This document shows positions 653 through 47,818 of a stretch of DNA of 53,517 nt, in pieces. The first letter of the stretch is position 1. Each line of letters opens with the position of its first letter. Origin of the DNA: Pelagomonas calceolata (taxonomy: Eukaryota); assembly GCA_918797485.1 (NCBI GenBank), contig CAKKNE010000003.1, positions 5,332,001 to 5,385,517 of the forward strand, written 5' to 3'. A program made the translations under genes and the position numbers. The notes under the pieces are model-generated. The model did no database searches. It was not told where the DNA came from and saw only the letters and a program-made list of their open reading frames with translations.

Positions 653-723
653 GGTACCGCAGTATATCGTAGGTATGCAGGTACCACGGTACCGTAGGTA
701 CCGTAGGTAGCTGTGACCGTACC
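653..723. promoter_or_regulatory. GGTACC / TA-CCG-TA array ~90 bp upstream of the methyltransferase ATG
   Basis: ggtaccacggtaccgtaggtaccgtaggta; the same motif family recurs 5' of most genes. Regulatory role inferred only from position. Confidence 0.55.
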
Positions 724-1138
724 TGTATCACATTACTGAACACATGGTACATGTGCTTTTAATTCCTTCTATTGGCATGGTAGTTTGGGACTAAATACCC
801 CTATGACCGTAGAGACCAATGGGGCTAGCTTTCCCAGCCTGAGGATCATGTCACGGTCCCGTTCAAGTTCAAGTTCGACCCGTCGCGGATCGGTCACGGT
901 TATGCTCTTTTGCATGCGGTCTCGTGGCGAGCTAACTTGTTCGTTTGCTCGGGTATTTCCCTGAAGGTATGGGGTATCCCGGAACTGGTGTTGGTCGCCC
1001 GGATACGCAGGCCCGGAGGCTATCCCTAGATCCGCCGCGCCGCCGCGCCGCCGCGCCCGCCGGCGTCCGCCACGGCGTCCGGTGGGTCGACAACCCCTAC
1101 GACGATACCCCGGGCTCGCAGAGGGAGGGGGCCGCTAA

Positions 1139-1640
1139 GGGGGCGGTCTCGTAATCTGAGGTTCGAGTTCCCAGCCACTTTTCCGGTCGCGATTTTGGCT
1201 GTGGGATCCCAAAGAGCCCCTTTGTACGCCCCATGACCGGGCTGGGGGGAAGGGTCCACTTTCGCGGCGAGACGCGGTCGCGAAGTTGCCCATCTGGGGC
1301 CTAACGTGCGGGTATTTCAGAGACCTCTGGACTGAAAAATCAAAACTCGCTTCTATGCTGGTAATTTGGTCTCCCAGGGGCCCTCGGGCACCTATGGCGT
1401 GGGGCGGATGCGTAGGCGCGGCCGGGTACCCGATGGGCTGCCAGATAGGTCGCCTGACGCGGCACGAAACGCCACTGGCTCGACCTTCACAGGCCACTAA
1501 AATTTCCAAACCTAATCGTTTCGCTTACCCGTTTCGGTCACGTCCTAGAGGGGTACGTTGGGCCCCTATTCTCAATTTGCGACCGGCCAAGACGTCTAGT
1601 TATAGAGATACGGCAAATTTGGGGTTGGGTGTCCGCCCCC
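1139..1640. repeat. Dispersed repeat family C, long copy; possible MITE (GGGGGCGG..CCGCCCCC ends)
   Basis: 1152-1178 and 1460-1626 align with 8771-8971; 10-bp terminal inverted match 9/10; no clear TSD. Confidence 0.7.
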
Positions 1641-1727
1641 GTGGGCCGCTCCTCGTGCGAGTCGCTTGTTGTTTGAATAGACTGAACGGCACGTGTACTA
1701 TTACTGCGCCTTATCTTACTAGTCGCC

Positions 1728-2624
1728 CTACTTCTTGAACAGGGGGGTTCCCACCACCTTCTTCGTCTTTCTGGGCAGCTCGATCTTCGGCGCGGACGGC
1801 GCGGGCCCCGCCGCCTTCTTCGGTGCGGCGGCGGCGGCGGCCTTCTTCGGAGCGGATTTGGACTCGGCTTTCTTCGCCGCGGCTTTTTTGGGGGGCTGGG
1901 CGGCCTTCTGCTCGCCTTTGAACAACGCCTTGCCCTTGACTTTCTCGCGCTTTGGCGGAGCAGCCTTCTTGGGTGCTGGCGTCTTCTTCTGCGTCGCGGC
2001 CTTGGCGGCGATGGCCGTGGCGGCGGCGGGCGCGGCCGCGGGCACGGCGGGCGCGGCGGCCTTTTTCGCGGGCTTGGGCGACGGCGCAACGGGGTTGGCG
2101 TACTGCGTGACGCCGGTCTTGGAATTGAAATAATACGTCGCGCCGGAGCCGAGGTTCTGCACGACGTTCCAGTCGGACGTGCCGCCGCCGACGGGCAGCT
2201 TCGGGATCGCCGGGTTGGAGATGGACACGCCGACGGTGCCCGGTGACGACGCGATGCGGATATCGAGCACCTCGTCGTCGAGCGCCGGCAGCGGACCGAT
2301 CTTAGGCGTGGACACCGTGACCTTGACCTTGCCGTCCTTGGCAGAGAGCGCCGTGCCGACGAGGTCGCCCGAGACCTTGACGGTCGGCTTCGCTTTGCTC
2401 GGCGACACTCCGAAGCGGCCGAGGACCGGGAGGTCGACGACCGGCGGCGAGTTGATGTCGGTCACGTCCACCGACAAGGCTACCGCCGCGAGGGGTGACG
2501 CGACGACAGCACCAGCCAGCGCCGCGGTGGCGGCCTGCCGTTGCAACGCGGTCGGCAAGGCGCGTTGAGGCTGCGGCGCCAGCGACGCAGCGCTTGCGGC
2601 CAAGGCCAGCAATCGGGGAAGCAT
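1728..2624 (-). CDS. Putative plastid-targeted protein with a WW domain and a Lys/Ala/Pro-rich basic tail
   Basis: MLPRLLALAASAASLAP signal/transit-like start; WNVVQNLGSGATYYFNSKTGVTQYANP fits the WW pattern; KKAA-rich C-terminus; GC3-biased codons. Confidence 0.75.
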   Translation of the reverse strand: MLPRLLALAASAASLAPQPQRALPTALQRQAATAALAGAVVASPLAAVALSVDVTDINSPPVVDLPVLGRFGVSPSKAKPTVKVSGDLVGTALSAKDGKVKVTVSTPKIGPLPALDDEVLDIRIASSPGTVGVSISNPAIPKLPVGGGTSDWNVVQNLGSGATYYFNSKTGVTQYANPVAPSPKPAKKAAAPAVPAAAPAAATAIAAKAATQKKTPAPKKAAPPKREKVKGKALFKGEQKAAQPPKKAAAKKAESKSAPKKAAAAAAPKKAAGPAPSAPKIELPRKTKKVVGTPLFKK

Positions 2625-2684
2625 GTCTGAAAAAGTGAGTAAAATCTTTCGATGCAAGTGAAGTACCTGTAAGTGACCTACCTC

Positions 2685-2705
2685 GGTACCGGTACCGTAG
2701 GTACC
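2685..2705. promoter_or_regulatory. GGTACC array ~60 bp upstream of ATG 2624
   Basis: ggtaccggtaccgtaggtacc. Confidence 0.55.
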
Positions 2706-2763
2706 TAGGAAGTGAGAAAAAATACTCCCCCCATCCCTTCCACGAAGACTGCGCGGTCGCTCG

Positions 2764-5044
2764 TTACGCGCGCGTGTGGAAGGGCTGGGCGTCCGCCCGG
2801 CGCGGCGTCGTGTGCACCGACGTCGCGGGCGCCGGGCTGCCGGGCTTGGGCGGCGGCTCGGGCGCCGCCGCGAGCGGTGACGGGTCGTTGCGGGGCCCGA
2901 GCGGCGGGCGCGGCGGGGGCGGCGGCTGCGCGCGGAGGCGCGCGACGTGGTGCTTGAGGTGCTGGAGCTCCGCGCGGTGCTGGACGAGCTTGTGGACCTC
3001 GGCCTCGAGGCGCGCGTTGTGCGTCGCGAGGCCCTCGGCGTCGGCGACGGCGCCGGCGGCGCTCTTCTCGGCCGCGTGGAGCCGCGCGCGGAGCCGCGCG
3101 GCGTGGGCGTCGCGCTCCTGGAGCGCCTGGAGCAGAAACTGCGTCGGCTTCTCGGCGGTCGCGAGGCGCGCGACGGCCAGGTCCGCGCGCGCGCGGAACG
3201 CCGCCGCCTGCGCCGCGAGGCCGTCGTTCGCCCGCGCGAGCGCCTCGCCGGCGGCCTCGGCCTTCAGGAGCCGCTGGGCGAGGAGCACGGCGTGGCGGAC
3301 GCGGCGCTCGGGCCGCGAGAGGCCCGCCGCCACGGCCGCGTCGCGGAGGCCCGCGTCGGCGACGCCGGGCTCCGGCGCGCCGCCCGCGCGGAGCACCGCC
3401 GAGTCGAGCTCGAGCTCGAGCTGCTCGTAGGCGCGCACTTTGCCCGCGAGGTCGTCGACCTCGGTCTCGAGGCGGCGGCGCTCGCCGGCGACCTTCTCCT
3501 CGAGCGCGGCGTTCTCGCGCGTCGCGACCTGCGGTGGGCGCGCGGCGGTTCGGCGAGGGCGCGGCGCCCGGGCGGCGACGAGCCCTATCCCCCCCCCCCT
3601 CGTTCGCGCGGCCGCGACGGGCGACCTGCTCGCGGAGCATGGCGTTCTCGAGCCGCGCCTCGTCGCGGTCGCGCTCGGCCGCGCGGAGCCGCGTCGCGGC
3701 CGCGGCGAGCTCGTACGCCAGGACGCGCCGCTCGGCCGCGGCCTCGGCCGTCTCCGCGACCCGGCGCGCCTCGGCCTCGGCCGCCCGGCTCCGCGCGCCC
3801 GCGACCTCGGCCTCGGCCGCGACGCGCGCCTCGCGCTCGCGGCGCGCGTCCTCGACCGCGTCGGCGCGCGCCTCGCGGAGGCTGGCGGCCTCGCGCTGCT
3901 CGAAGGTCTCGCGCTCCCTCCGGAGCGCCTCGACGCGCGCGTCGGCCGCCGCCGCGACCTCGCGCGTGCGCGCCTCGAGCTTCTCGCGGAACGCGTCGCC
4001 CTCGAGCGCCAGGCGCCGCTGCAGGTCCGCGACCTGAACGCGCTTCTCCTCGACGGCCTCGTCGGCCCGGAGGCCGCGGTACTCGGCCGCGTCCGCGCGC
4101 TTCGCCTCGGCGTTGGCGACGTCGCGCTGGTGGCTCGCCTCCTGCCGCGCGAGCTCGCACGCGGCCTCGGCGTCGCGGACGCGCCGCGCGCAGTCCGCCT
4201 CGGCGGCCGCCGCCGACCGGACCGCGTCCGCCGCCTTGGCCTGGTGCGCCGCGAGCTCCGCGTTCTCGGCGACGTAGCGCGCGCGGTCCGCCTCGACGCG
4301 CGCCAGGCGCACCGACGCGGCGCGGCCGGCCTCGAGCGCCTCCGCGCGCTCCGCCTCGCGGCGCCGCGCGTGCTCGAGCTCCGCGGCGACCCGCGCCAGG
4401 TCGTCGCGCAGCAGCTGCTCGCGCTGCGCCGCGCCGTGCGCGAGGCCCTCGTGCTCGGCGCGGAGCCGCTCGTGCGCCCGCTCGGCCGCGTCGCGCCGCT
4501 TGGCCGCGTCGAGCGCCGCGCGCGCGCTTTCGAGCCGCGCGGCCTGCGTCCGCTCCGACGCCTCGACCACGCGCACCGTCGCCAGCTCGCGCAGCGTCAG
4601 CTCGTCGGCCGGCCGCGCGCGGAGTTCGTCGACGAGCGCGCGGACGGACGCGGTTGCCGCCTCGTCGCCGCCCGCGTCGACGGCGTACGCCAGGCCGTCG
4701 CGGAACCCGTCGTCGATGGCGTCGCGCCGGTCCCGCAGCGCCTCCGTCGCCCGCGCGAGCTCGACGGCCTGCGCGTCGGCCTGCCGCCGCGCCGCGTCCG
4801 CGTCGCGCCGCGCGGCCGCCAGGCGCGCGTGGTACGCCTCGCGCTCGGCCGCGCGCCGCTCGTGCGTCGCCGCGAGCTCCGACTCGAGCTGCCGCGCGAG
4901 GGGCGCCGGCTCGCCGCCGAGGTTGGAAAACGACTCGGGCAGCGACAGCGTCGGCGACGAGGCGGCGCTGCCCCCGGCGCGCGGCCGTGCGGGCGACGCG
5001 CCCAGCGCCGAGATCTCCTCGTCGTCCGAGGCCGCGCCGTCCAT
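2764..5044 (-). CDS. PIBF1: PIBF1/CEP90-like centriolar coiled-coil protein; join(5044..3626,3528..2764)
   Basis: Motifs ELRARPADELTLRELATVRVVE, RAYEQLELELDSAVL, RRVRHAVLLAQRLL and KPTQFLLQALQERD resemble PIBF1; GT-AG intron 3529-3625 joins the two ORFs in frame. Confidence 0.8.
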
Positions 5045-5157
5045 AAGTACCAGACCGCTTGGATGGAAAAGCAGGCGGGTGGGCTCTTGGGCAGCAGCCC
5101 GTTTTTGTGCGCGAGTCGTTTGCCCGATGTATTTAAAAAACACCGAGTATCCGCTGA

Positions 5158-5194
5158 TACCGTAGGTACCGCAGTACAGTACCGTAGGTACCGT
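5158..5194. promoter_or_regulatory. GGTACC array ~115 bp upstream of PIBF1 ATG
   Basis: taccgtaggtaccgcagtacagtaccgtaggtaccg. Confidence 0.55.
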
Positions 5195-5776
5195 TGGTAA
5201 CCTGCTATGATATGGCCACGTATCCTTGTATTTACGTCTATGATGCTCCGGGTATTAAACCCAGCAGCCTTTGGCAGTTATGGAGCAGGAATTTTATATT
5301 CCTAAGCTGGGATTTATTCCCATATGTATACGTCCTGTTCGACCTGTAGGGAAGCTCCTAAAATTCGACGTAATTCCTGTCTTGTATTTGCGAGGGCCAT
5401 AGACTCGAATTTTGCGCTTGAAATATGAAATTGTTTGCGATACTATCGATTGCGCTGCAAGGCAAAGAGTAGGTAACTAAGACCAGAGGTCCACCTCTCT
5501 CGTTTGCGGAGAACGCCACTTCCAATTACCCAGCGCCTGGAAATATAAGATCTAACTCCATGACGGGGCCCGAGAGGGGACTTCCTTTGCAAGTGTACTT
5601 TGAAGTTGAAGCTCGGGGCAGCATCGGGGCAGCCTCGTTTCCATAGCAAATAGCTGCCATTAGGTCCATTTTGTGGAGCGGTGCGCACCGGCTGGCCTCG
5701 ACGGCCGCCGGCGTCGCGCGAGGCGCGCGCACTACGGGCCAATAGGGGGATACCGAGTTACCCTAAGGGCTTATAG

Positions 5777-5939
5777 CAATATAGAGTGTCCTTAGACCTC
5801 TTTATTCAATATAGAGAGGGCTTAGAGAATTAATGTCAATATGGAGATTGTGTAAGAGTGCTTACATAAGCAAGGTAGTTAGGCGCGCGCTCACTCCATA
5901 TTGAAAGATATGCCAGTGGTGTAAGGCCCCTCCATACTG
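5777..5939. repeat. CAATAT(A/G)GAG motif: three direct copies at 30-bp period plus two inverted copies
   Basis: Direct at 5777, 5807, 5837; inverted CTCCATATTG at 5894 and CTCCATACTG at 5930. Confidence 0.7.
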
Positions 5940-6264
5940 ATTTATGCGGAACCTGGATTATACGGCCGTATTATTACTTCTTCGCGGTGAGCGCGTGGTC
6001 TGACTATGCTACGACGTCGTGCCCGTCGTTCTTGGGGTTCACCGTGACTAGTACTACTATAGTGGGGTGCGGCCGCGTCGGGTTTCGCGCGCAAGCGTCA
6101 CGGGGCAGCCCCGCGACGGCTCTTGCCCCACGGAACACTCTTCTAGACGTGGCACATGGGGCCGGCAAAAGCTTAAAGATGAAACTCCCTGGCCGTACCA
6201 TTCAGTACCTATTTTAAATACCGGTACATCGGGCAGCGTATTTTAAAGCGGCTTGGCGGACACC

Positions 6265-8616
6265 ATGGTCCGCCTCGAACTGGTGGAGAAAAAGGCGCAC
6301 GCGGCGATGGCGACCTGCGCGACGTGGGCGCCGACGAACGTCCTCTACAGCTGCAGCGACGACCAGACGATCCTCAAGTGGGACCAGCAGGCCGAGGTGA
6401 CGGGCAAGTGCTGCGAGCTCGACGCCTACGTCACGTCCATCGCGTGGATGCCGAGCGTGGGGCGCGGCGTCTCCGACGTCTTCGCCGTCTCGGCGTGCGA
6501 CGGGAGCTTCCGGCTCGTGACGGGGTCGGGGCGCGAGGAAAAGCGGGTGGCGGCGCACCACGGCGCCTGCCTGCGCGTGCTCTGGAACGCCGAGGGCTCC
6601 GCGCTCTACTCGGCGGGCGAGGACGGCGAAGTCAAGTGCTGGTCGAAGACGGGCCACCTCCGGTCGACGCTCGTCAAGGCCGCGCACCCGGTCTACGCGG
6701 TGGCCGACGGCCCCGGCGGCGACGCGCTGGCGTACGTCTGCGACCGCCGGATCCACGTCGCGCCGGTCGGCGACGCGAAGGCGCGCCAGGCGACGAGCTG
6801 GGTCGCGCACGACCAGGTCGCGCTGGCGCTCGACTGGAACGCGGCGAACGGGCTGCTCGTCTCGGGCGGCGAGGACTGTCGCTACAAGGTCTGGGACTCG
6901 TTCGGGCGCCAGCTCTACCAGTCGCAGCCGCACGTCCACGTCGTCACGGCCGTGCGCTGGTCGCCGAACGGCCTCTACTTCGCCGTGGGCGCCTACGACC
7001 TGCTCAAGCTCTGCGACCGCACGGGCTGGAGCTGCTCGCGCGAAAGCCCGCGGTCGGGCTCGATCATGGACATCTGCTGGACCGCCGACGGCACGCAGCT
7101 CGTCGGCGCGGGCGGCGCCGGCGCGCTCGTCTTCGCGCACGTCGTCGAGCGGAAGCACGAGTGGAAGAACTACGAGGCGACGCTAACGGGGCAGCGCTCG
7201 ATCCACGTCCGAGACGTGCTCACCGAGATCGACGAGACGCTCGACTTCAACCGCGACCGCGTCGTCGAGATGGCGCTGGGCTACGGCTACCTCGTCGTGT
7301 CGACGACGACGCAGATCTACGTCTACAACGTCGCGAACTTCAACACGCCCTACATCTTCGACTCGCCGGAGACCGTGAGCTTCATCCAGCTGGCGGAGAA
7401 GTTCTTCCTGGTGCTGACGCCCGCGGCCGTCGCGGTCTACACGTACGACGGCCGCAAGGTCTCGACCCCGCGCTTCGCCGGCCTCCGGGCGGACCGGCTC
7501 TCGGCGCCGGTGCTGAGCCTGAGCCCGGACCTCGTGGCCGTCGTCGACTCGACGGACCGCCGGACCGTGCGGCTCTGCGACGTCATGACCGGCAAGCCGC
7601 GCGAGCCCGCGGTCAAGCACACGGCCGACGTCGCCGCCGTCCAGCTGAACCAGACGCCGGCGCGGCAGACGCACGAGCGGCAGCTGCTCCTCGTCGACCG
7701 GAACGACGAGCTCTGGCTCTACCTCTGCGGCACCGCCGAGGGCCACAAGCTGCACACGCAGGTCGACAGCGCGTGCTGGAACGAGACGAGCGAGGCCCTC
7801 TGCGCCATCGCCGACGGCCGCCTGCTCGTCTGGGGCTACCCGCGCGTCGCCTTCACGGACCGCGACCTCCTGCCGGGGACGCTGACGACCAAGGACGGCG
7901 CCGAGTTCGGCCAGCTCGCGCAGGTCGCGTCGTTCCGCGGCACGAAAATCGTCGTGCGGCGCGCGGACGGCGCGCAGGTCACGGCCACGGTCGCGCCCTA
8001 CTCGGACATGCTCCACGAGTACGGGTCGCAGCACCGCTGGGACGAGGCCGTCGGCGTCTGCCGCTTCGTCGAGGACCGCGGCTGCTGGTGCGCGCTCGCG
8101 TCGATGGCGCTCGAGGCGTCGAACCTCGACGTGGCCGAGATCTCGCTCGCCGCGCTGCGCGAGGTCGACAAGCTCCAGTACATTTTGTACGTCAAGTCGA
8201 TCCCGTCGGCCGAGGCGCGGAACGCGGAGCTCGCGCTCTACAAGCGGCGCCCCGACGACGCCGAGCGAATCCTGCTGCAGGCGACGCCGCCGCTGGTCTA
8301 TCGCGCGATCAAGATGCGCATTCGCGCCTTCCAGTGGGACAAGGCGCTGGACCTCGCCGTCAAGCACCGGTCGCACGTCGACACGGTCCTGGCGTACCGG
8401 TCCAAGTACCTCGAGACGTACAAGAAGACGGAGACCGACGACCGCTTCAAGCAGCTCAACGGCTCCGTCGAGTGGAGCTGGGAGCAGGTCAAGTCCAAGA
8501 AGGACCTCGAGAAGCGCGAGGAGGCGGCGCGGTCCGGCGGGCCCCCGCCGGACAAGCTCAAGCTGCCCAGATTCGTCCCGGCGGAAGGGGGCGAGTCCAA
8601 GGACGACCACAAGTAG
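6265..8616 (+). CDS. IFT80: Intraflagellar transport protein 80 (WD40), intronless
   Basis: WD repeats and KVWDSFGRQLYQSQPHVHVVTAVRWSPNGLYFAVGAYDLLKLCDRTGWS; C-terminal WDKALDLAVKHRSHVDTVLAYR characteristic of IFT80. Confidence 0.95.
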   Translation: MVRLELVEKKAHAAMATCATWAPTNVLYSCSDDQTILKWDQQAEVTGKCCELDAYVTSIAWMPSVGRGVSDVFAVSACDGSFRLVTGSGREEKRVAAHHGACLRVLWNAEGSALYSAGEDGEVKCWSKTGHLRSTLVKAAHPVYAVADGPGGDALAYVCDRRIHVAPVGDAKARQATSWVAHDQVALALDWNAANGLLVSGGEDCRYKVWDSFGRQLYQSQPHVHVVTAVRWSPNGLYFAVGAYDLLKLCDRTGWSCSRESPRSGSIMDICWTADGTQLVGAGGAGALVFAHVVERKHEWKNYEATLTGQRSIHVRDVLTEIDETLDFNRDRVVEMALGYGYLVVSTTTQIYVYNVANFNTPYIFDSPETVSFIQLAEKFFLVLTPAAVAVYTYDGRKVSTPRFAGLRADRLSAPVLSLSPDLVAVVDSTDRRTVRLCDVMTGKPREPAVKHTADVAAVQLNQTPARQTHERQLLLVDRNDELWLYLCGTAEGHKLHTQVDSACWNETSEALCAIADGRLLVWGYPRVAFTDRDLLPGTLTTKDGAEFGQLAQVASFRGTKIVVRRADGAQVTATVAPYSDMLHEYGSQHRWDEAVGVCRFVEDRGCWCALASMALEASNLDVAEISLAALREVDKLQYILYVKSIPSAEARNAELALYKRRPDDAERILLQATPPLVYRAIKMRIRAFQWDKALDLAVKHRSHVDTVLAYRSKYLETYKKTETDDRFKQLNGSVEWSWEQVKSKKDLEKREEAARSGGPPPDKLKLPRFVPAEGGESKDDHK

Positions 8617-8770
8617 GCCCAGTGGGGGGCTAAGTTTCCGGGCGCGTCCTAGACGGCTGGCTAGACAGTCCAAACTTCTATCCAAACTCACGCCCGGGTT
8701 CGCTCCATGTCACATGGCTACGACATGTAGTACTCTTCCTAGTGCGAGCAACTTGAAGGGAGGGCTCTCC

Positions 8771-8971
8771 TAATCTGAGATTCGAGTTCCCAGCCACCTC
8801 GGCACGAAACGCCACTGGCGCGACGTTCGCAGGCCACTAAAATTTCCAAACCTAATCGTTTCGCTCGCCCGTTTCGGTACGTTCCCGAGGGGTAAGTCGC
8901 CCCCCTATTCTCCGACTCAATTTGCCGGCCTACCGAACGCCTAGTCATAGGGATACGGCAAATTTGGGGTT
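8771..8971. repeat. Dispersed repeat family C, internally deleted copy
   Basis: Matches 1152-1178 joined directly to 1460-1626 (about 280 bp missing). Confidence 0.75.
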
Positions 8972-9520
8972 CGGCGGTGATCATGATCCCCCCTGTGTGC
9001 GAGCAGTGCGTCGAGCACTAGCTCAAACATCATTGACTCGGAAACTGGGCTAAAAACAATTACTAGTGCTAGTAGCAACAGTGGCCCGCGGGGCGCTTTT
9101 CTGATAGCTCTAGCCAAAACGGAAGATAACTATACTAGTCTATAGTCTTACAGACATGAAGATCATGATGCCGGAGCCCGCACCAGATTCTCCTCCGTAT
9201 GGACCTCCGGATTAAAATCGTAAAATTCCTCCTCGCAAGTTTAAATATGTTTGTATGCAAGTGCGGCCGTGACGAAGCACTCGGGGTCCGTGTTAGAGGG
9301 ACTAGCCACAATAAGCGACTCTCCCTCTCACGCTTGATCATGTGACGTCGCCAAAGCCAGGGGCCGAGGACGTTGCGAGCGGTGCCTTTTTAGAAAAGCC
9401 GTACCGGAGCCAAGGTTTCGGTCGCAACGGGGTTCAAGTTCCACATGTTGCCTACTAGTAGAACAACAAGCAATCGTTCAAGTTGGACCTATCAGGAAGT
9501 GGGAGGCGTCGAAGATAACT

Positions 9521-10944: not shown

Positions 10945-11068
10945 GGTACCCTAGTTAGGATAGCTCAGAGTACCGCAGTACCTACCGCAGTACGGTACCG
11001 TAGGTAGGGTGGTACCAGTACCTACGGTACCGTAGGTACCGTAGGTAGATCAGCACATACCGTAGGTA
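10945..11068. promoter_or_regulatory. Long GGTACC array upstream of TIM22, in the divergent region shared with the 10528 gene
   Basis: gtaccgcagtacctaccgcagtacggtaccgtaggtag...ggtaccagtacctacggtaccgtaggtaccgtaggta. Confidence 0.55.
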
Positions 11069-11137
11069 GCACCACAAAACTAATAGCAGTCTACAGACAG
11101 CGGTTGCAAACCTACGCTAAGATGTCATTGTTTGACG

Positions 11138-28446: not shown

Positions 28447-28514
28447 GTACCGTAGGTACCGTGGTACCATGGTACCGTAGGTACCGTAGGTACCACGGTA
28501 CCGTAGGTACCGTA
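28447..28514. promoter_or_regulatory. Purest GGTACC array, ~85 bp upstream of the HECT gene ATG
   Basis: gtaccgtaggtaccgtggtaccatggtaccgtaggtaccgtaggtaccacggtaccgtaggtaccgta. Confidence 0.6.
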
Positions 28515-28554
28515 TTCACTAGGCCTATTCTATCCGGGTATCTAACTAAGATAA

Positions 28555-28767
28555 ATGGGACCAGGATAGTGAAGCTAAGATAAAATTTGGGAGATTTATA
28601 AGTGGAAAAGGGGCCGTTGCCACAACGGGCGCCAACCCCCAGGGACCCCGGACCACTGGCACGCGCCCGGGAGCTCAAGTGCGCGTCGCGGGAGCTCAAG
28701 CAACGCGCCGGAGCCAGTGGCCAGTTCCACATCCTGACGGGCCTGACGGGGGGCATCCTGATCCCAT
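28555..28767. mobile_element. Possible 213-bp MITE
   Basis: ATGGGACCAGGAT (28555-28567) and ATCCTGATCCCAT (28755-28767) form a 12/13 inverted match; single copy here. Confidence 0.4.
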
Positions 28768-28881
28768 CAAGAGGGCTTGCCTATCGTTGGTAATGTAATG
28801 CAATGCTATGTATCTATACCTTCTACCGTAGGTACCGTAGGTACCGTAGGTATACGGTACGGCCCCTTGGAATCTAAAAAA

Positions 28882-30067: not shown

Positions 30068-30228
30068 TAGCTCACCAGCCGAGGGCTGGGCCAACCTGAC
30101 TACGAGAGTGTTTTATAGTGAACTGTTGTTACACCGTAGTGCTTTTGACACTCGATGTATAGACTCAAATATTAGAGAGTGGGAGATACATATCTAGGGT
30201 AGGAAGGGCTAGTAGGTTTCTCTCTCTA
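30068..30228 (-). mobile_element. Copia-family LTR, truncated copy
   Basis: Near-identical to the reverse complement of 47522-~47682. Confidence 0.8.
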
Positions 30229-30412
30229 AGGAATGCGATACGGTACCTACGATACCATACCTCGAGAGTAGGTACCGCAGACTCACGGCAACTGGTGAGT
30301 CGAGGTGCCATACGACGTCGGGCTACGCCGCAGGTCTAGCGCTACAAGCTTTACACAAAGGAGGCCGTATTTTCGCGGCGCGCCCGAGACGCCCTCTCGA
30401 AAGTCAACGGAG

Positions 30413-32073: not shown

Positions 32074-35000
32074 ATGCTCTCCAGGATGAGACCGGCGCGC
32101 GCGCTCGCCACGCGCGCGGCGGCGGCGGCGGAAGAGTTCGCGACCGGCACGTCGTCGGCGTACGCGGACGCCCAGTACCTCGCCTGGCAGCGGGACCCGG
32201 CCTCGGTGCACTCGTCGTGGGCCTCCTACTTCGCGTCGGGCGCGTTCGCGCTCCCGCCGCAGCTCGGCGGCGCGCCCGCCGCCGGCGCGGCGGCGGCCGC
32301 GCAGGTGCCGGCGGGCGACGCGGAGTCGACGCTGCAGGGCCTCACGGGCGCGGACACGGCGCGCGCGATGCATCTCATCGCCGCGTACCAGCGGCGCGGC
32401 CACGAGCGCGCGGACCTGGACCCGCTGCGCCTCGCCGGCGACCGGCCGCGGCTCCGCGACCTGGACCCGGCGACGTACGGCTTCGAGCCGGGCGACGCCG
32501 ACCGGGCGCTCCGGCTCGCCTCCGCGCCCGGGTCGGCGGTCGCCGGCTGTGTGGAAATCAACCAGTGCGTCGGGTGCACCCCGACGCGGCGATTCAGGAC
32601 GAACGCGCCGCAAATTTGATTTCCACACAGGTCGCCGGCCTCCTCGGCAACGCGGACGTGAACGACGACGGCCTGACGACGCTCGCCGAGCTCGACGACT
32701 TCCTCCGCGACACGTACCGCGCTGTGTGGAAATCAACCAGTGCGTCGGGTCAGCGCTGGCTCCGTCGAGCGGTGAGGAACCGACATCGCCACGCCATCGA
32801 GCAGGCGTCGCGTCGATGGCGTGGCGGTCGACGCGGCGATCCAGGACGAACGCGCCGTAAATTTGAGTTCCACACAGGTACTGCGGCACCGTCGGCGTCG
32901 AGGCCGAGCACATCACGAACCTCTGCAAGCAGAACTGGCTCCGGTCGCGCATCGAGGTGCCGCGGAAACCGCTGACGCTCGACGAGCGGACGCACGTCCT
33001 CGAGCGCCTCGCCTTCGCCGAAAAGTTCGAAAACGTCCTCGCGACCAAGTTCAACACGGCCAAGCGCTTCGGCCTCGAGGGCTGCGAGTCCATGATCGGC
33101 GGCATGAAGACCATGGTCGACGCGGCCACGCTCTGCGGCGTGACGGACGTCATCATCGGCATGCCGCACCGCGCGCCGCCGGCGTCGCTCGGAGGGGCGC
33201 GGGGAGGGGCGGGGGGCTTCACGCGGCGCGCGCAGGCGGGCGCCTCAACGTGCTGTGCAACGTCGTGCGGAAGCCCATCGAGGTCATCTTCCGCGAGTTT
33301 TTGGGGACGGCCCGCGACCAGGCCGCGGGCGGCGCGGCGTGGTCGGCGTCCGGCGACGTCAAGTACCACCTGGGCACGGCGTACGACCGGTCGTACCCCG
33401 ACGGCCGCAAGGTGCGGATCGAGCTGCTCCCGAACCCGTCGCACCTCGAGGCCGTCACTCCGCTCGTCGTCGGCAAGGCGCGCGCGCGCATGGACGCCCA
33501 GGGCGACGCGCGCGGCGACGCCGTGCTGCCCGTGATCGTCCACGGCGACGCCGCGTTCGCCGGGCAGGGCGTCGTCTACGAGACGATGCAGATGGTCGCG
33601 CTCGAGGCGTACGGGACGGGCGGGACGATCCACGTCATCTGCAACAACCAGGTCGGCTTCACGGCGACGCCGGAGCAGGGCCGAAGCACGATGTACGCGT
33701 CCGACCTCGGCAAGGCGTTCGGCGCGCCCATCTTCCACGTCAACGCCGACGACCCCGAGGCGGTCTGCCGCGTCTTCGAGACCGCCGTCGCGTGGCGCCA
33801 CGAGTTCAAGACGGACGTCATCGTCGACCTCGTCGGCTACCGCAAGTTCGGCCACAACGAGATCGACGAGCCGACGTTCACGCAGCCGATGATGTACGCC
33901 AAGGTGCGGACGCAGCCGTCGGTGCTGACCAAGTACCTCGAGACGGTCGCGGCCACGGAGCCCGTCGTGCCGGCCGCCGACGTCGCGCGGATCGTCGCGC
34001 ACGTCGACGACGTCTTCGCCCGGGCGTTCGAGGCCAAGGACACGTTCACGTGGGACCGCGACGTCTGGGGCCAGAACTGGCAGAAGATCGTCACGCCGGC
34101 GGACGTCGGCCACGGCGCCTTCGGCAAGACGGGCGCGTCCCCGGACGCGCTCGCCGCCGTCGGCGCCGCGCTGTCGACGGTCCCCGACGGCTTCAAGCTC
34201 CACCGCCGCCTCCGGGGCCGCCTCGCCGGCTTCGCGGAGGCCGTGGCGTCCGGCGAGGGCGTCGACTGGGCGCTCGGCGAGGCGCTGGCGTTCGGCACGC
34301 TGCTCCTGGACGGCATGCCCATCCGCTTCACGGGCCAGGACGTCCAGCGCGGCACGTTCACGCACCGGCACGCCGTCGTCCACGACCAGGACGACGGCCG
34401 CGAGTACTGCTTCGTCAACCACATACACGCGGACCAGCCGGCGAAGCTGGCCATCCACAACAGCTTCCTCTCGGAGTACGGCGTCCTCGGCTTCGAGCTC
34501 GGCTACTCGTACGAGTCCCCCGACGTCCTGTGCATCTGGGAGGCGCAGTTCGGCGACTTCGTCAACGGCGCGCAGATCGTCATCGACCAGTTCCTCAGCT
34601 CGGGCGAGGCCAAGTGGATGCGCCAAACGGGACTCGTCGTCCTCCTGCCGCACGGGTACCAGGGCCAGGGCCCCGAGCACTCGTCCTGCCGCATCGAGCG
34701 CTTCCTGCAGAACAGCGACGAGGACCCGGACGTCATCCCGCCGGACCTCGACACGATCGAGGGCCAGACGCGGCAGGTCCAGCTCAACAACTGGCAGATC
34801 ATCAACCCGTCGCCGCCGGCGCGCGAACCCGTCCGAGGCGCCTTCTCCGACCCCCCCCCCCGCTTGGCTCGTCTCCGTCGGAAGACGCCTCGACGCGGTG
34901 TCGCTTCACGCGCGTCGCCGCAGGTCGACGCCGGCGAACTACTTCCACGCGCTCCGTCGCCAGCAGCACCGCGACTTCCGCAAGCCGCTCATCGTCGCGT

Positions 35001-38503: not shown

Positions 38504-38563
38504 AGTACGCGGTACTGCGGTACCGTAGGTACCACTGGTACCAGCAAGTACCGTAGGTACCGT
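38504..38563. promoter_or_regulatory. GGTACC array ~75 bp upstream of the MYB ATG
   Basis: gtacgcggtactgcggtaccgtaggtaccactggtaccagcaagtaccgtaggtaccg. Confidence 0.55.
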
Positions 38564-38564
38564 G

Positions 38565-38735
38565 TATCAAGAGTATGTCGCAGCGTTATGTAAAGTAGCA
38601 GGGTGTTAGCTAACCAGCCGAGGGCTGGCTAGACCTGACTACGAGAGTGTTTTATAGTGAACTGTTGTTACACCGTAGTGCTTTTGACACTCGATGTATA
38701 GACTCAAATATTAGAGAGTGGGAGATACATATCTA
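38565..38735 (-). mobile_element. Copia-family LTR, truncated copy
   Basis: Near-identical to the reverse complement of ~47554-47724. Confidence 0.8.
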
Positions 38736-41189: not shown

Positions 41190-41233
41190 CGCTATGGCTA
41201 TGCCACCTCTATGCCATCCGCCAAAAATCTAGC

Positions 41234-41297
41234 TACCGCAGTACCGGTACCGAGTACCAGGTACGGTTACCTGCCGCAGGTACCGTGGTACCTACGG
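41234..41297. promoter_or_regulatory. GGTACC array within the ~195-bp gap between divergent TIP41-like and PPTase genes
   Basis: taccgcagtaccggtaccgagtaccaggtacggttacctgccgcaggtaccgtggtacctacgg. Confidence 0.6.
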
Positions 41298-41383
41298 ACG
41301 CCCCCAATTCGCCTCCATGCTCCGCGGCGGAGCATCATCTCTAAATTGCAACTTGCCTGGTCCCCCAGACGGCTCCAGACTGC

Positions 41384-42292
41384 ATGCTCACACCCACAAA
41401 AACCGGCCTCTCGACGCTCGCGCTGGCCGCGAGCTGCGGCGTGCGCTGCCTAGAGGTCCGCACTAGCTGCGGCGTTCGTTCGTCGCGCGCGAGGCGGCGC
41501 GTGTCGGCGCGCCGCGCCGGCGGCGACGGCGCGTGGGCGACGGTGCTCGACCTCGACGTGCCCGGTGCCGGCCGCATCGTGGGCGTCGCGATGCCGCAAG
41601 GCGTCGGCGTCGAGCGCGCGCGCGCGCCGCCAGCCGGGTCGCCGGTCCTCGCCGAGCTGGCGCCGGCCGAAGTCGCGTTTCCCCTCGACAACGCCTTCTC
41701 GGAACCTGCCGCGCGCGACTTCTGGGGCGGGCGCCTCGCGCTACGGCGCGCGGCCGCGGCGGCCGGCGTCGCCGCCGGCCCGGAGCCCTTGCTTCGATTA
41801 GCGACCGGCGCGCCGCGCGCGCCCCCCGGCGCGGTCGCGTCCGTCTCGCACAAGCGGCCGCTTGCCGTAGCGCTCGCGCGCGCGGCCGAGGCCGCGCCGC
41901 GCGCGGGCGGCGTCGGCGTCGACGTCGAGCGCGCGCGCGAGCCGCGCGCCGGCGCCGCGCGCCTCGCGCGCCGCGTCGTTCGCGCCGACGAGCGCCGCGC
42001 CTACGCCTCGCTGCGCGGCGTCGTCGACGTGCGCGTCCGCGCGGCGCTCTTCTTCTCGCTCAAGGAGGCAGTCTACAAGGCCGTCGCCGGCGACGCGGCC
42101 GCGGGCCTCGCGCTACGCCACATCCGCCTCGGCCCGTTCGTCGACGACGCTTGCGGCGTTCGCGTCGACAACGGCGTGCTGCCCGCCGGCGCCGCTGTCG
42201 ACGCCAGGTGGCGCGTCGCGCGGATTCCCGCCGGCGACGACCGCGTTTACTTCCTCTCGACCGCGACGTACCGTCGGGCGCCCGGGGCCTGA
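41384..42292 (+). CDS. 4'-phosphopantetheinyl transferase (EntD/Sfp type)
   Basis: FWGGRLALRRA, GAP..PPGAVASVSHK, GVGVDVE, FSLKEAVYKA. Confidence 0.88.
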   Translation: MLTPTKTGLSTLALAASCGVRCLEVRTSCGVRSSRARRRVSARRAGGDGAWATVLDLDVPGAGRIVGVAMPQGVGVERARAPPAGSPVLAELAPAEVAFPLDNAFSEPAARDFWGGRLALRRAAAAAGVAAGPEPLLRLATGAPRAPPGAVASVSHKRPLAVALARAAEAAPRAGGVGVDVERAREPRAGAARLARRVVRADERRAYASLRGVVDVRVRAALFFSLKEAVYKAVAGDAAAGLALRHIRLGPFVDDACGVRVDNGVLPAGAAVDARWRVARIPAGDDRVYFLSTATYRRAPGA

Positions 42293-42514
42293 TGTAATCT
42301 ATCCTCCTGCTAATTGCCGCGGGCACCACCCGTTCTCGGGCCTGGCCGGCCCAGGGGGCTCACCCTGCATACGGATTTTCGATAGGTACGATCTGACTGG
42401 GGAACGACATAAAAAATCAGGACCGAGGGCGTTGGAGCGCTTCGAGGGTTCAAGCATTGGCGGTGTTCACTGGCACAGGTAGATGGCACAGGGGGCCCCG
42501 GCCCGCAGGGAGTC

Positions 42515-42633
42515 CAGGGTGGCAATCCGAGACGAAGTAGCCGGGAGAGACCGGTAACTCTTCCTACTAGGGAGGAATAAATTTCGATTTTCGGAAAGTA
42601 GTTATAAGTAATATACAACAGACGCGCGCGCGG
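42515..42633. mobile_element. Isolated end of the hAT-like family seen at 48943 and 51824
   Basis: CAGGGTGGCAATCCGAGACGAAGTAGCC... aligns to 48943-49060, then diverges; no second TIR found. Confidence 0.8.
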
Positions 42634-43009
42634 CTCACTGATGATGAAATAGTTATGTCCATTTCAAGTTTTACACCAAAATGACCTGTTTTCGCTCATA
42701 TATGCAAGATTTTCGCTCTAAGGCGAGCGAAAATTTTCAGACACGATCGGAACACATTTCGTTGATAAAAATGGGTCATAACCATGCGCCCCTTTTTGCC
42801 GACAAAACCCGATTTCCCCCCAGCCAGGCAATCGATCAGCAGGCACTCTAAGCAGACACATTAGCAAACGCAGGTCCAGTAATATTGCTATCAACATCAG
42901 AAGAAGTTTGATAACCTTGACCAGTAACATAAGTCGAACTTAAAACACTGGCATCCGACTCGGATGAAGTTTTACTACTAGCCCCTATCAGCCCCGTACT
43001 GCAGTGGGC

Positions 43010-44324
43010 TCAGGACGGCTCTCGGGACGGATGCGGGTACACCGGCAGCGCTGCCGTGAGCGCCACCGCCAGGGCCTCGACGGGAGCGCGCGCATTCCAG
43101 CACCAATGCGTCTGGTCCATCTGGCCCCGGTCGCCGAAGTTGTGCGAGTATCGCCGATCGGCGAGGAGCAGGTGCGTGTGGACGAACCTCGCGTGCGGTA
43201 GGAGCCGGAGAACGACGTGTTTGGCGACTCGATCCCGCCACGCGCCCGCCGTGTTCAGCGTGGCGAAGTCGCGGAGCCGCGCGCCCCCGACTGTGTGCTG
43301 CGGGCTGTGCGTCAGGAAGACGACGTGGCGCTGGGGACTGCGCGTGCGTAGGTACACGGCGAGGCGCACGAGCGCGGCGGCAAACGTGCATTGGTCCCGG
43401 TCCTCTCCAACTCCGTAGGTCGGCACGTCGGCCCGGAGAAGCGCATAGTACACCTCTCGTTTGTACTTTTTATTGGGCCGTGCCGTCGTTGCGCGCGCCG
43501 CGGCGCGCGCGGCCAGGGCGTCGATTGCGGCGATCGACTCGTTCCACGGTTGGAAGAAGACCTCAGGCGCGAAGATGACGCCGTCCTCTCGACATGTTGT
43601 CTTCGAGGCGTTCCAGTTGTACCACAGGCCGATCTGCACGAGTAGCGTCGCGTTCGGGTGGTTTTGGAGTTTCTGCAGGGAATAATCGAGAACCTCTCCG
43701 TCCAACGGCACGACGTGCAGCGGCACCCCGACGGGTCTCGTCGCATCCGCCTCCGCCGTGCCCGAGCAGCGGAGCGCGTCGTAGTGCCACGACGCGGCCG
43801 CGGACAAACCGAGGGCGACGCTGTCGCCCATGAAAATAAATTTCCACCGTTGTCGTGCGGCGATTCGCAGCGCGTCGAAGGGGCTCGCGATCCGGCACCT
43901 GCGGATGCGAACGCTCGGCCCGAGAATACCCGCTCGGACCAGACACCGGGACCCGCGGCCGTGCAAGGACGTAGGTCGCCTTGTCCTCTCTCGCGCGTCG
44001 TTCGCGATCCGAGTCCGTCCACTCGCACGGGATCTCGCCGTTGTGCTTCGTGACGCACATCTCCTCGCCGGCCACGAACCGGCTGCACAGATTCGTGGGT
44101 TCGAGCGCCGCGGCGTAGCAGCGGCGAGCGGCCGCAGTCCAGCCGCCCGCCGCAACATCCTCCCACCGTCCCTTGACGTCGTTGCCCCTACACCACGTCG
44201 GCGGCGCCTCGCGCCGCGGCCAAAAGTCGTCGTCGCGGAGAGCAGCGCATGCGTCCGGGTCACAAGTGGGGACCGCTGCTACCAGGAAGCGCCAGGGATA
44301 AATTGCGGCGACGCAGGCCGTCAT
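43010..44324 (-). CDS. PC-esterase/TBL-like SGNH protein (putative polysaccharide O-acetyltransferase); intron acceptor at 43899, start uncertain
   Basis: FIFMGDS and MDQTHWC (GDS..DxxH) motifs; LVQIGLWY; Cys-rich N-terminal exon with KGRW. Confidence 0.7.
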
Positions 44325-45059
44325 TATTTTTGCAAGATGGGGCTGCCTCGGCGTGAGCATTCCGCCGCGAACGCCTACAGACAGCGTAAATTGCGCTAAA
44401 CTAAGACCGCATGAGTTGTCTGTTGCCCCGCGCCAGTCAAGGTCCACCTGCCAAGGCCAGGCCTGGAGATCCTGGATGGGGGGTTGGCCGGGGTTGGAGA
44501 ATCCGTCCTCAAACTCAAACCTACGCGTTTCACGCGTCTAAAACTTACACCTAAGCGCAAAACCTGTACGCCTTAATTTTCGGGTTTTGCCAAAAGCAGC
44601 AACCGTTTTTCGAGGAGGAGTCACTATGAATGACTATGAGTGACTGTCGGCATCAGATCAGTCTGATAAAGGATTTAGTCGTATGGATGGGCGGGCGAAT
44701 GATCACGGCCGACATCGACATTGCGGCCGACATGATCCCGTCGTACGAACAAAATGACGGCTCGCTCACGAAATTTGATAAGGGCCCCCACGCTCGGAGC
44801 GAGGGCCTATGTGCCCCTCCCCTACCCCTCTATAAAGCTCCTGGGGTGAATAACCCGTCTAACGGGCACTCACCCGAGTAATAAAGCCAGGCCTGCGGCA
44901 CCAGGGGCTAATAATCCCTGGGTCTGGTCCCAGGGGAGTTACTTGCAACCTAGGGCGCCACTAGAGGGCGCCGCGGCATCTGATAAAGTAGAAATCGAGG
45001 ACGTTCGCAAGAGGGAAGGCTACCCTCCCCCCTCTGAGTAGCTGCATGTGGAGGTCTCC

Positions 45060-47055
45060 TTACCCCGCCCAGGAAGAAGACGACGGCGCGGCGCGGCGGT
45101 CCGGCCCGCCGGGCGTGGCGACCGCGCGGGGCGCAGGCGGCGGCAAGCGAGACGCGTCGGCGGCGCGTGCGAAATCGCGCCAGCACGTTGCGGCGCCACG
45201 CGCGGTCGCCACGTCGGGGTCGGCGGCCAGCGCGGCGGGGCGCGGGCGGCGCGCAGCGTCGCGCGCGAGGCACGCGCGGACGCGCGCGTCGAGCGCGCGC
45301 GAGCGGCGCGGTGGCAGCGGCGGCGCCGCGTCTGCGCGGAGCGCCTGCCACGCCGCGCCGGCGGCGGCGAGCGGCGCCGCCGTCGCGAGTTCGTACGCGG
45401 ACGCGCCGAGCGCGAACACGTCGACGTGCGACTGGGGCCGATAGTTCGACTGGAAGCACCTGCGCGCGAGACCACGCTGTTCCATGGCCGCAGGAAAACG
45501 AGCCATCTCGATCGAAGCTTCCCGCCGGGCCGCGGCTGACGTCCGCGCCGCACGCACTCGGGCGCGAGGTAGCGCGCGTCGCCTTCGGCGCCGTCGCTCG
45601 GTGCGGCGCCGACCGTGGCAACAGACCCAAAGTCGCCGAGCTTCAGCTGCCCCTGCGCATCGACGAGGACGTTGCCCGGCTTGACGTCGCGGTGGACGTA
45701 ACCGCGCGCGTGGACGTGCGCGAGTGCGTCGCCGACGTCGCCAAGCCTGCGCGCGAGACACGACAAGCTCGGGGCGAGCGACGCGATGTCGAATCGGGCG
45801 ATCCTTCCCGCGCCGCGCCGGGCAGCTTCCAGAGGTGCGGCGCCTCGGGCGCGTCTCCGTTCCTCGAGACGATCTGCGCGACGCTGCCCAGGGCGCAGAG
45901 CTCGAGCTGCGCGTGGAGGTGGCCGCCCTCCTGCCACGCGAGGTGGAACGCGATCACGTTCGGCGCGCCCCGCAGCGCCCGCAGCGCCTCGCACTCCGCG
46001 AGCGCCGCCTCGCGCGCGCGCCGCGACCGGAACGGGCGCCGCGCGACCTTGATCGCGTAGCGCTCGCCGTCGACCGTCGACGTCGCGGTCCAGACGTCCG
46101 AGAACGCGCCGCGGCCGCACCGGCCGTCGAGGACGAAGTCGCGCGCGAGCCGGACGTCGCGGCGCGGCGCGTCGCTGGCGGCGTGGCGCGTCCGGCGCCG
46201 CTTCGGCGGCGCGGGGCGCGGCGGGCGGGGTTCCTCGGCGGCGTCGTCCGTCGACGCGTCCGACGCGGCGGCCGCCGCCGCGTCGTCGGCGGCCGCGGCC
46301 GCGCGGACCCACGCCGGCCTGTCGTGCGCGTCGAGCGCCGCGTCGACGAGGACCTTGGTCGCGTCGAGCGACGACGCGACGCGCGGGGGCGGCGCGGCGC
46401 GCGGCGCGCTCCTCCGCGCGCGCGCGTCGGCCACCGCGCCCGTCGCTCTCGCATGGGCGCCGGCCTCGGCCGCGGCGCTCACCGCGGCCACCGCCGCCGC
46501 GCGGCGGCGCCACGCGGGCTCGCGCTCGGGCGGCGACGAACGCGGACTCGACGCGGCCGCGGCCGCGTCGCCGAACGCCGCGGGGTCGGGCACCGGCCGG
46601 CGCTTCACGGGCGCGTCGTCGTCGAACTCCGGCGACGCGGCGCCGACCGCCGGCGACCAGTCGAGGCGCGGCTCCTCGCCGCGCGACGGCACGCGGACCG
46701 TCTCCGCGCGCGGCGTCGTGCGCGCCTCCGCCCGCGGCGTCTGCGCTCCCGCCCAGGCTGAGGCTGCGGCCGCCCGCGGCGACGCGGCGGCGGCCTCGTC
46801 GGCCGCGCCGTCGAAGTCGAGGCGCGCCGCGACGCCGCGCGCCGCCGGCGCCCGCGCCGGCGGCCGGCGGCCGGGCCGCTCGCTCCGGCGCGGCGCGCCC
46901 ACCGCGGGCGCGGGCGGCGCCGCGGGCGATTCCTCGGCGAAGAGGAACGACGCCACGCGCGAGCTCGGCGCCGGCCGGCGCGCGCTGGCCGGCCCGACGC
47001 GAGGCAGGCTTATGCGGAACTGGCCGCCGAAGGAGAGGCTCTCGGCGCCAGACAT
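45060..47055 (-). CDS. Wee1/Myt1-family protein kinase; join(47055..45824,45746..45558,45459..45060)
   Basis: GRGAFSDV, DGERYAIK, AWQEGGHL..QLELC, HRDVKPGN, KLGDFG, EGDARYLAPE, DVFALG, WQALR. Confidence 0.9.
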
Positions 47056-47324
47056 GCTGCGTTTTATTATGTCCTCAAATTGGTGTGGTCTAAAACCTAC
47101 CCCGCAGAGCTGAATGTGACGCGCGCGCCGGTGCGCTTTAAACATATATATATATATATGTGTAGCCATATAAATACGTGTAGCTATAGTCAATTCGGGT
47201 TGCGGGGGCGCGCGCCTAGAGGGGTGACGGGGGAGCTATCCCCCGCGAGCGTGTACGTAAGCTTGCTGCCGGTCGTAGAAGCGTGCGTCGTCGTCGCCGT
47301 GCCCGGGCGCGTTGGTGAAGTCCG

Positions 47325-47724
47325 GGTTGCCGCCGACGAGCCTACTTTCCGAAAAAGGACGAGAAGGATCCAACAAAGGTATTTTACGGATATTCATTTC
47401 AAGAAGAAATCTGTTGCACATGAAGCCTATCACTTGTCACATGGATTTTGTCAGTGAATAGACTGAGTTGATACATTCTCTAGTAGAAAGGCATCTAATG
47501 GACGCTCGCGCCCAGGGGGAGTAGAGAGAGAAACCTACTAGCCCTTCCTACCCTAGATATGTATCTCCCACTCTCTAATATTTGAGTCTATACATCGAGT
47601 GTCAAAAGCACTACGGTGTAACAACAGTTCACTATAAAACACTCTCGTAGTCAGGTCTAGCCAGCCCTTGGCTGGTTAGCTAACACCCTGCTACTTTACA
47701 TAACGCTGCGACATACTCTTGCTA
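47325..47724 (+). mobile_element. Copia 3' remnant: RNase H-like fragment, polypurine tract (47514-47521) and full 203-bp LTR (47522-47724)
   Basis: VAADEPTFRKRTRRIQQRYF resembles the NPxFxxRTKHIxxRYH motif; AGGGGGAG directly precedes TAGAGAGAGAAAC...CTCTTGCTA. Confidence 0.75.
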
Positions 47725-47818
47725 ACGGTACCGTACCTCCTACGGTACCGTAAACAGGTTTGCACCTTTTGCGCGCCGCGCGCCTGGTGGCGCCGGTGGC
47801 GCCGCTTGCGTTCGATAA

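Follow-up and report, generated by a model that had tools for sequence, protein, structure and literature searches.

Excision of IS630-Tc1-mariner elements such as Sleeping Beauty, ZB and Passer leaves footprints in which the target TA is duplicated and, after end joining, a few element bases stand between the two TAs (PMC2874221); this filler is reported as 2-4 bp (PMC7913693), and Passer, a pogo element, is reported to insert preferentially near transcription start sites (PMC9976928). Ac/Ds elements (hAT) are described as leaving hairpin footprints with P-nucleotides, in which an inverted copy of the flank surrounds a central base and the ends join through microhomology (PMC5873905). Short TA-punctuated motifs concentrated upstream of genes are known from Trichoplax, as an ACAGT microsatellite (PMC2871265), and from Phytophthora, as TACATGTA and TACCGGTA (PMC3597505); they were interpreted as microsatellites or factor-binding sites, and the accounts that present them propose no transposon origin. 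Here we describe arrays rich in GGTACC in a 53,517-nt stretch of a GC-rich alga of the open ocean, Pelagomonas calceolata (contig CAKKNE010000003.1, positions 5,332,001-5,385,517, forward strand; the whole stretch is called the window), a chromosome end with about 24 genes and a TTAGGG telomere from ~53140. Like the Trichoplax and Phytophthora motifs they lie upstream of genes, and like Tc1/mariner footprints they appear to carry a duplicated TA with element bases in between. The arrays are chains of a fixed 7-base unit set at TA; in our judgment they are probably scars stacked up by the repeated excision of a small resident element of the cut-and-paste kind, here called E, that favours transcription starts. 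Unlike Tc1/mariner footprints, the unit would stem from two unlike ends and is nearly invariant, stacked and nested; compared with the Trichoplax and Phytophthora motifs it is longer and asymmetric and has a matching element. Transposon excision footprints are known; what is new is the fixed asymmetric unit, its nesting, the alleles before and after a gain, and the matching element.

GGTACC is the top 6-mer of the intergenic DNA of the window (15.7 kb, both strands, order-2 Markov model), with 90 occurrences against 14.9 expected, and CCGTAGGTA occurs 26 times against 0.26. An earlier note on this DNA had listed 15 GGTACC clusters, and all were found where it placed them; the array at 28447 reads as quoted there, and a TACAGTA reported near 5175 lies at 5176. 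The clusters are given below without strand, U standing for the main unit, TA-CCGTAGG-TA.

653-723: array upstream of the Methyltransf_24 gene, 2 U and 2 six-nucleotide units
2685-2705: array upstream of the WW-domain gene, 1 U
5158-5194: array upstream of a coiled-coil gene, 2 U, adjoining the right end of element E
6194-6227: weak cluster upstream of IFT80, no intact unit
10945-11068: array upstream of Tim22, 5 U in both orientations with one nested group; RNA 5' ends at 11058 and 11069
14599-14633: array of six-nucleotide units upstream of a PLOD-type glycosyltransferase; RNA 5' ends at 14657
16614-16630: array, 1 U; minus-strand RNA 5' ends at 16587/16589
18679-18727: array, 3 U in both orientations
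20902-20975: array, 2 U; minus-strand RNA 5' ends at 20889
28447-28514: longest array, 4 U, CCGTGG, CCATGG and CCACGG; its final CCG-TA also forms the opening 5 nt of element E
28817-28861: array, 3 U; RNA 5' ends at 28866/28887; the L037 allele is 16 bp shorter
30239-30277: weak cluster upstream of homoserine dehydrogenase, no intact unit
38504-38563: array upstream of the Myb gene, 2 U, CTGCGG and CCAGCAAG
41234-41297: array between the divergent TIP41 and PPTase genes, containing CCTGC-C-GCAGG, two E-type right ends joined
47726-47752: cluster upstream of the FHA-RING gene, no intact unit

Five of the 15 clusters (6194, 14599, 30239, 41234 and 47726) lack an intact main unit, and those at 6194, 30239 and 47726 also lack any six-nucleotide unit. 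The reported position just 5' of start codons is borne out: every cluster midpoint (edge-to-ATG distance 14-136 bp) and all 25 main units fall within 200 bp upstream of an ATG, a zone that makes up 27% of the intergenic DNA, and the six convergent spacers are free of clusters, with 0-2 isolated GGTACC each. Likewise, no array lies near MetAP, OGDH, the TBL-like gene or the P4H/sulfotransferase pair, whose preceding spacers contain no GGTACC at all. The DNA concerned cannot be called TA-poor, as had been supposed: intergenic TA odds reach 1.13, or 1.03 once the arrays are set aside, and fall to 0.61 in genes only. The proposed link to transcription starts is supported by RNA (poly(A) paired-end reads without cap selection; X22 and X24 are a single sample), the 5' pile-ups listed above each lying about 25 bp or less from an array edge; pile-ups without an array also occur (16129/16146 and 44442). 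The gene starts at 14763, 16643 and 18780 were placed by us without N-terminal Pfam support, and RNA covers these genes.

The genome-scale tests rest on at least 123 metagenome loci (595 kb) picked by a scan for the array pattern; as the loci were chosen for two tandem units, this selection was corrected for where relevant. Many of them have dispersed repeats in common with the window, and two (L037 and L099) are alleles of window loci. Before counting, 37-40 of 124 loci were removed as allelic, overlapping or off-target (L001, L010, L013, L032, L034, L059 and L072), the lists varying slightly between counts, and open reading frames (ORFs) of at least 200 aa served as gene proxies. One excluded contig, L059, is repeat-rich; it contains TA-punctuated tokens of other kinds as well as numerous long inverted repeats, and it resembles another organism. 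In the loci, main units reach 5.58/kb upstream of genes versus 0/kb downstream, arrays occupy 32 of 109 5' flanks versus 3 of 119 3' flanks (p=6e-9), and 41 of 71 arrays precede an ATG by 300 bp or less, with four within 300 bp of a stop.

The arrays had been parsed as TAs separated by CCG and GG, each taken as an independent footprint of 2-3 nt. This does not agree with the order of the tokens: when 133 arrays are cut at TA, the token after CCG is GG in 211 cases and the one after CC is CGG in 174, versus one CCG-CGG and four CC-GG, and 42 arrays not chosen by the search pattern give 31 and 11 versus 0 and 3. The pairing of CCG with GG and of CC with CGG therefore indicates that the building block is U, in either orientation. 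Each gain turns TA into TA-CCGTAGG-TA (+9 bp) or its reverse complement, duplicating the TA. The 7-nt filler occurs 400 times in 439 kb of selected loci plus the window, 25 of these in the window, and 13 solitary units stand in flanks without arrays. Relative to the gene, 66 units are sense and 73 antisense, and neighbouring units share orientation in 37 cases versus 51 with opposite orientation, once one seed pair per locus is taken out. Units are also nested: when CCG and CC are read as openers and GG and CGG as closers, enclosing pairs are matched in 23 cases versus one mismatched, a number reached in none of 2000 shuffles (6.0±2.3, maximum 16); only one nested pair lies inside the window. 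Other fillers between TAs are CCGTGG (49), CCATGG (9), CCGCAGG (6), CCGCAG/CTGCGG (58), CCAGCAAG (15) and CCAGCTTG (13).

Gains can be seen directly in allele comparisons. Clean acquisitions of U at a single TA separate L025 from L048, L044 from L092 and L067 from L109, and one such before/after site exists for CCAGCTTG; among 211 non-redundant indels of 3-20 nt in homologous stretches, three of the nine that measure nine bases are clean gains of U at one TA. In addition, about 15 independent copies of a dispersed ~200-bp repeat read GAG-TA-TGT at one site, while two carry a whole U there and one carries CTGCGG; since most copies are empty at this TA, the direction of change is gain. Allelic arrays differ in 16 of 26 cases, several by 8, 9 or 18 bp. 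The +4/+5-nt differences of TA-xxx form that had been predicted do exist (14 of TA-CC/GG-TA, three of TA-CCG/CGG-TA), but most differences are units of 8-9 bp. Variation by 9-bp slippage alone, which would have spoken for another origin, is not what the alleles show, as template-free gains at single TAs occur, although slippage could account for part of the 9-bp differences. Single-TA gains, nesting and mixed orientation together argue for insertion at TA with TA duplication rather than slippage, and in this respect the repeated TA-duplicating gains suggested by the earlier note stand; slippage may add further units inside long runs. A duplication of GTAC (4 bp) or TAC/GTA (3 bp) was rejected because the right flank of the unit is often TAT or TAG.

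The note had further expected a TA-flanked element with CCR and YGG ends. The species does harbour an element that is flanked by TA and has CCG at one end, but its two ends are unlike, reading CCGTA… and …GCAGG. We traced it from two window repeats adjoining arrays, which proved to be the left and right ends of one element. The left end starts, after TA, with CCGTATTCA (window 28510) and is exact in five of ten copies; the right end finishes, before TA, with ATAGCAGG (window 5201; decayed at 18678) and is exact in five of nine. A complete copy of 100 bp (L018:3332-3431, minus strand) has TA on both sides and lies 60 bp upstream of the RuvBL ATG, outside any array, and a second, decayed two-ended copy of ~70 bp lies in L025. 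The TCCGGGTAT motif lies in inverted form 24 nt from the left end and, in longer copies, 47 nt from the right end. Ends of E adjoin three arrays of the window:

5201-5350, minus strand: right end of E (…CATATCATAGCAGG) with body, a one-ended copy with one extra T before the TA
18500-18678, plus strand: decayed right-end copy of E, adjoining the array at 18679
28510-28650, plus strand: left end of E (TA, then CCGTATTCACTAG…TCCGGGTAT) with body, a one-ended copy

The filler of the unit matches the termini of E. Joining four left and three right, or five left and two right, terminal bases gives CCGTAGG; four plus two give CCGTGG, and two plus five or three plus four give CCGCAGG. The right end of E always reads CAGG and never TAGG, so E is not a body inserted within a unit, and of 409 occurrences of TA plus CCGTAGG, 400 run straight into a further TA, so no element starts with the whole unit. 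Searches of the loci and the window for symmetric terminal inverted repeats of the form TA-CC…GG-TA found none, and such scans missed E itself; patterns for the ends of E gave only chance matches in wider searches. The species annotation contains at least one Tc1-like DDE gene (PF13358, Pca_3p03790). Two other sources were rejected: the ~200-bp repeat with GCAAGAG, whose ends are G…C and whose flanks vary, and AanRAGL, which makes a 5-bp duplication. AanRAGL/Transib and introners are active DNA transposons of the same algal class, the pelagophytes; the 5-bp duplication and CACAC ends reported for AanRAGL (PMC9435367) and the 8-bp duplication reported for Aureococcus introners (bioRxiv 2022.06.06.494994) fit neither the TA nor the 2-bp duplication described below. 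The OGDH gene of the window contains introners (32547-32630 and neighbours) with 15-bp inverted ends and an 8-bp duplication.

We propose that E enters TA sites in the open DNA of promoters, near transcription starts, and that its excision would leave several of its bases on each flank, about 4-5 on the left and 2-3 on the right. These leftover bases could anneal through a shared A and be ligated to CCGTAGG. Each scar would turn one TA into three, so that the same spot can be hit again and the array grows, and a new insertion at the middle TA of a unit would produce nesting. CCGTGG/CCACGG and CCGCAGG would be alternative joins of the same ends, and CCATGG a presumed CpG-decay product of CCGTGG/CCACGG. 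The transposase is presumably of IS630-Tc1-mariner type; because E lacks proper inverted ends, its mariner-like working and its place in that group are putative. Any effect of the arrays on transcription would be secondary.

A second kind of scar is found in the rest of the intergenic DNA. Gains of 6 bp that convert a dinucleotide XY into XY-C-rc(XY)-G-XY, where rc is the reverse complement, recur in allele comparisons and make up 37 of 55 six-base indels. The corresponding 8-mers number 78 versus 5.2 expected in intergenic DNA of the window and 1001 versus 125 in the loci, for all 16 XY, while the other 15 centre pairs give 2-18 versus 3-5 expected in the window; in window genes the matches are nearly all CG/GC words at background level.

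836-48797, no strand: 78 intergenic 8-mers of the second class, e.g. at 862, 868, 8750, 10813, 14428, 16434 and 29751, only one of them within 200 bp upstream of an ATG

This class avoids promoters and occupies the remaining intergenic DNA: its density in the window is 0.23/kb in the 200 bp before an ATG versus 6.7/kb elsewhere, and in the loci 1.8 versus 6.8/kb. It combines a duplication with an inverted copy for any target, as in footprints of the hairpin type (hAT/CMC/Transib), and its form fits that expected of hairpin opening and microhomology joining, with a 2-bp duplication and one element base per side. As in Ac/Ds, an inverted flank copy surrounds a central base; however, the duplication is 2 bp rather than 8, one product dominates, and the centre is always C and G, not, as in the palindromes of Ac/Ds, the complement of the neighbouring base of the flank. 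Since the central C and G appear whatever the flank, these bases presumably come from the element. We take a CACTA/CMC-like element (2-bp duplication, C…G ends) to be a candidate source; no element with a 2-bp duplication and C…G ends was found in the 595 kb of loci and the window.

Several observations weigh against an origin of the arrays in E. The chance of such a join from random TA pairs outside arrays is 1.75e-4, a post hoc figure because E was picked after inspecting a few array-adjoining repeats. Among the loci there is no pair of alleles with and without E, the L018 and L025 copies having no counterpart that lacks E, and the step from E to the unit is therefore drawn from the fit of the sequences. 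Only two two-ended copies were found, the ends have in common only CC and a short TAT stretch and so are barely inverted repeats, without the terminal inverted repeats of IS630-Tc1-mariner elements, and the 207 ORFs of the loci include no transposase. At 7 nt the filler exceeds the 2-4 bp of Tc1/mariner footprints. CCGCAG/CTGCGG, CCAGCAAG and CCAGCTTG are not joins of E ends, and no element for them was found in the loci and the window; CCGCAG, CCAGCAAG and CCAGCTTG probably derive from other TA elements. The bracket parse leaves 204 half-unit tokens unpaired, the +4/+5-nt indels exist, many of them as alignment by-products within arrays, and some 9-bp differences lie in same-orientation runs where slippage could produce them. 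A 5' pile-up is present at no fewer than five (at least 5 of 11) of the arrays in the two RNA-mapped stretches, in reads that were not cap-selected. Lastly, main units in the window are 22 plus versus 3 minus whatever the strand of the gene, for which the model gives no reason; the bias is not repeated in the loci (between arrays, 8 same versus 13 different) and may be chance.

Among the alternatives, a hairpin-repair scar deserves most attention, but we consider it improbable. The unit would then consist of TA, a loop CCG, an inverted TA, a loop GG and TA, the middle TA being a palindromic addition made by the same chemistry as in the second class. This would give the three-part shape of those abundant 6-bp scars and account for the dominance of one product, and the ends of E (CCG… and …GG) could also provide the loops. 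However, XY-CCG-rc-GG-XY is seen with TA and with no other dinucleotide, the left end of E already has TA at positions 4-5 and its right end AGG, CCGTGG and CCGCAGG agree with direct joins of the ends, and the two classes of scar occupy opposite zones. We think it very unlikely that the arrays grew without a transposon, by slippage, template switching or copying between arrays during break repair at promoters. Tandem runs of one orientation, with several alleles 9 or 18 bp apart within them, and an 18-19 bp repeat in one L091 array that resembles slippage are what such a process would give, yet units arise at single TAs without a local template, neighbours are opposite as often as same in orientation, and copying would not predict matched nesting or a fixed length with TA duplication. 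The head-to-tail units of one orientation, gained only beside existing copies, that mark microsatellites and minisatellites are not what the arrays contain.

Equally hard to sustain is the idea that the unit is a selected, orientation-independent promoter element, a transcription-factor site with a copy number adjusted by selection. In its favour, the arrays sit tightly at transcript 5' ends, and the TA-bounded palindromes TACATGTA and TACCGGTA are reported as Phytophthora promoter motifs (PMC3597505), the former being bound, according to one report, by PsMyb37 (PMC11134190). But OGDH and the TBL-like gene are expressed without an array, most allelic arrays differ, units also break into the dispersed repeat, and selection accounts for neither nesting nor TA duplication. 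The expression of genes without arrays and the free variation in array length speak against a need for arrays in transcription; neither requirement nor conservation between alleles, as expected of a core promoter, is found. Scars may nevertheless have been co-opted later as factor sites, a possibility suggested by the related TA-bounded motifs that are factor sites in Phytophthora. One U serves as a used splice acceptor (AG at 16624-16625 of a plus-strand intron at 16449-16625, from RNA). Having weighed these alternatives, we retain stacked excision scars of E as the probable origin of the arrays. A wider proposal is tentative and, on balance, doubtful as a whole: in this alga, which ranks among the most abundant eukaryotes of the ocean, two cut-and-paste systems would write most short intergenic gains, a deep-cut TA element with unlike ends at transcription starts and a 2-bp hairpin element elsewhere, with the arrays as an ordered tally of transposition and the scar adopted as start-site and splice-acceptor sequence.

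The array pattern had no match in Genome Taxonomy Database (GTDB) genomes and a single chance match, in coding frame, in viral contigs, where a pattern for the ends of the dispersed repeat had none. When DNA contigs were placed over the arrays, no clean alleles could be told apart, owing to the pile-up of paralogous arrays. A literature search, mostly at the level of titles and abstracts, returned no description of these arrays or scars in pelagophytes, and the P. calceolata genome paper never uses the word 'motif' in its main text. The gene order of the window (methyltransferase, WW, unknown, IFT80, unknown, TIM22 … HECT, Kelch, homoserine dehydrogenase) is that of Pca_3p28650-28860 in the P. 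calceolata annotation (PMC9481584), and the window Tim22 is 75% identical to the Aureococcus anophagefferens protein. The genome paper reports six chromosomes capped by TTAGGG, with one region of ~52% GC per chromosome; in the window, subtelomeric tandem repeats at 52840-53517 merge into the TTAGGG telomere, with TTAGGGG variants.

Other repeats accompany the arrays. The ~200-bp TA-flanked dispersed repeat (GCAAGAG…CTCTCTC) is of high copy number and has inserted repeatedly into arrays, being present in L088 and absent from its allele L043; it is transcribed from both strands at 16129-16589. Its copies in the window are:

16418-16612, plus strand: ~200-bp repeat, with a polarised 6-bp scar at 16434
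20980-20995: ~200-bp repeat
30068-30228, plus strand: copy adjoining the 30239 cluster
38565-38735, plus strand: copy adjoining the 38504 array
47522-47724, minus strand: copy adjoining the 47726 cluster

A further dispersed element, which has the ends CAGCGAT…ATCGCTG and frequently neighbours arrays, lies at 20993-21280 and in L049, L069, L081, L085 and L087. Two inverted 430-bp copies of a repeat with CAGGGTGG ends (48942-49371 and 51824-52253) flank the P4H/sulfotransferase pair, and their swapped-looking 8-bp flanks suggest inversion between the copies; a partial third copy lies at 42515. A ~380-bp hAT-like element with CTAGG ends and an 8-bp duplication occurs at L020:3010-3393 and L050:9844-10225, and two insertions vary by presence and absence, one of 193 bp with AGTAGTAT inverted ends and a 3-bp duplication (L006:1297-1489) and one of 2.9 kb with a transporter-like gene inside (L039:6980-9887). 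Four low-GC loci (L014:5000-11395, L069:7923-12878, L018:4485-9415 and L044:4085-5503) hold separase and RSP3 in two very divergent copies (41% and 67% identical, respectively) as well as two members of the tubulin family, with arrays upstream of both separase and both tubulin copies; three of the four have dispersed repeats in common with the window. A dimorphic, non-recombining (mating-type-like) region, or a second species, is possible.

The leading promoter motifs of algae and oomycetes are usually taken as factor-binding sites, whereas the dominant one here is best explained as transposon scars, and alleles before and after a gain, together with a matching element, make this alternative directly testable in a cultured, sequenced species. 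P. calceolata is reported to be repeat-poor, at ~6% (bioRxiv 2024.10.30.620910). Scaling the 25 units and the excess of ~73 distal scars counted over 52.8 kb to a 32-Mb genome would give about 15,000 units and about 44,000 distal scars. The asymmetric ends and the 7-nt scar hint at an uncharacterised cutting geometry. The arrays are also very polymorphic population markers, and because nested scars keep the order of events, they would provide a record, promoter by promoter, of transposition and open chromatin.

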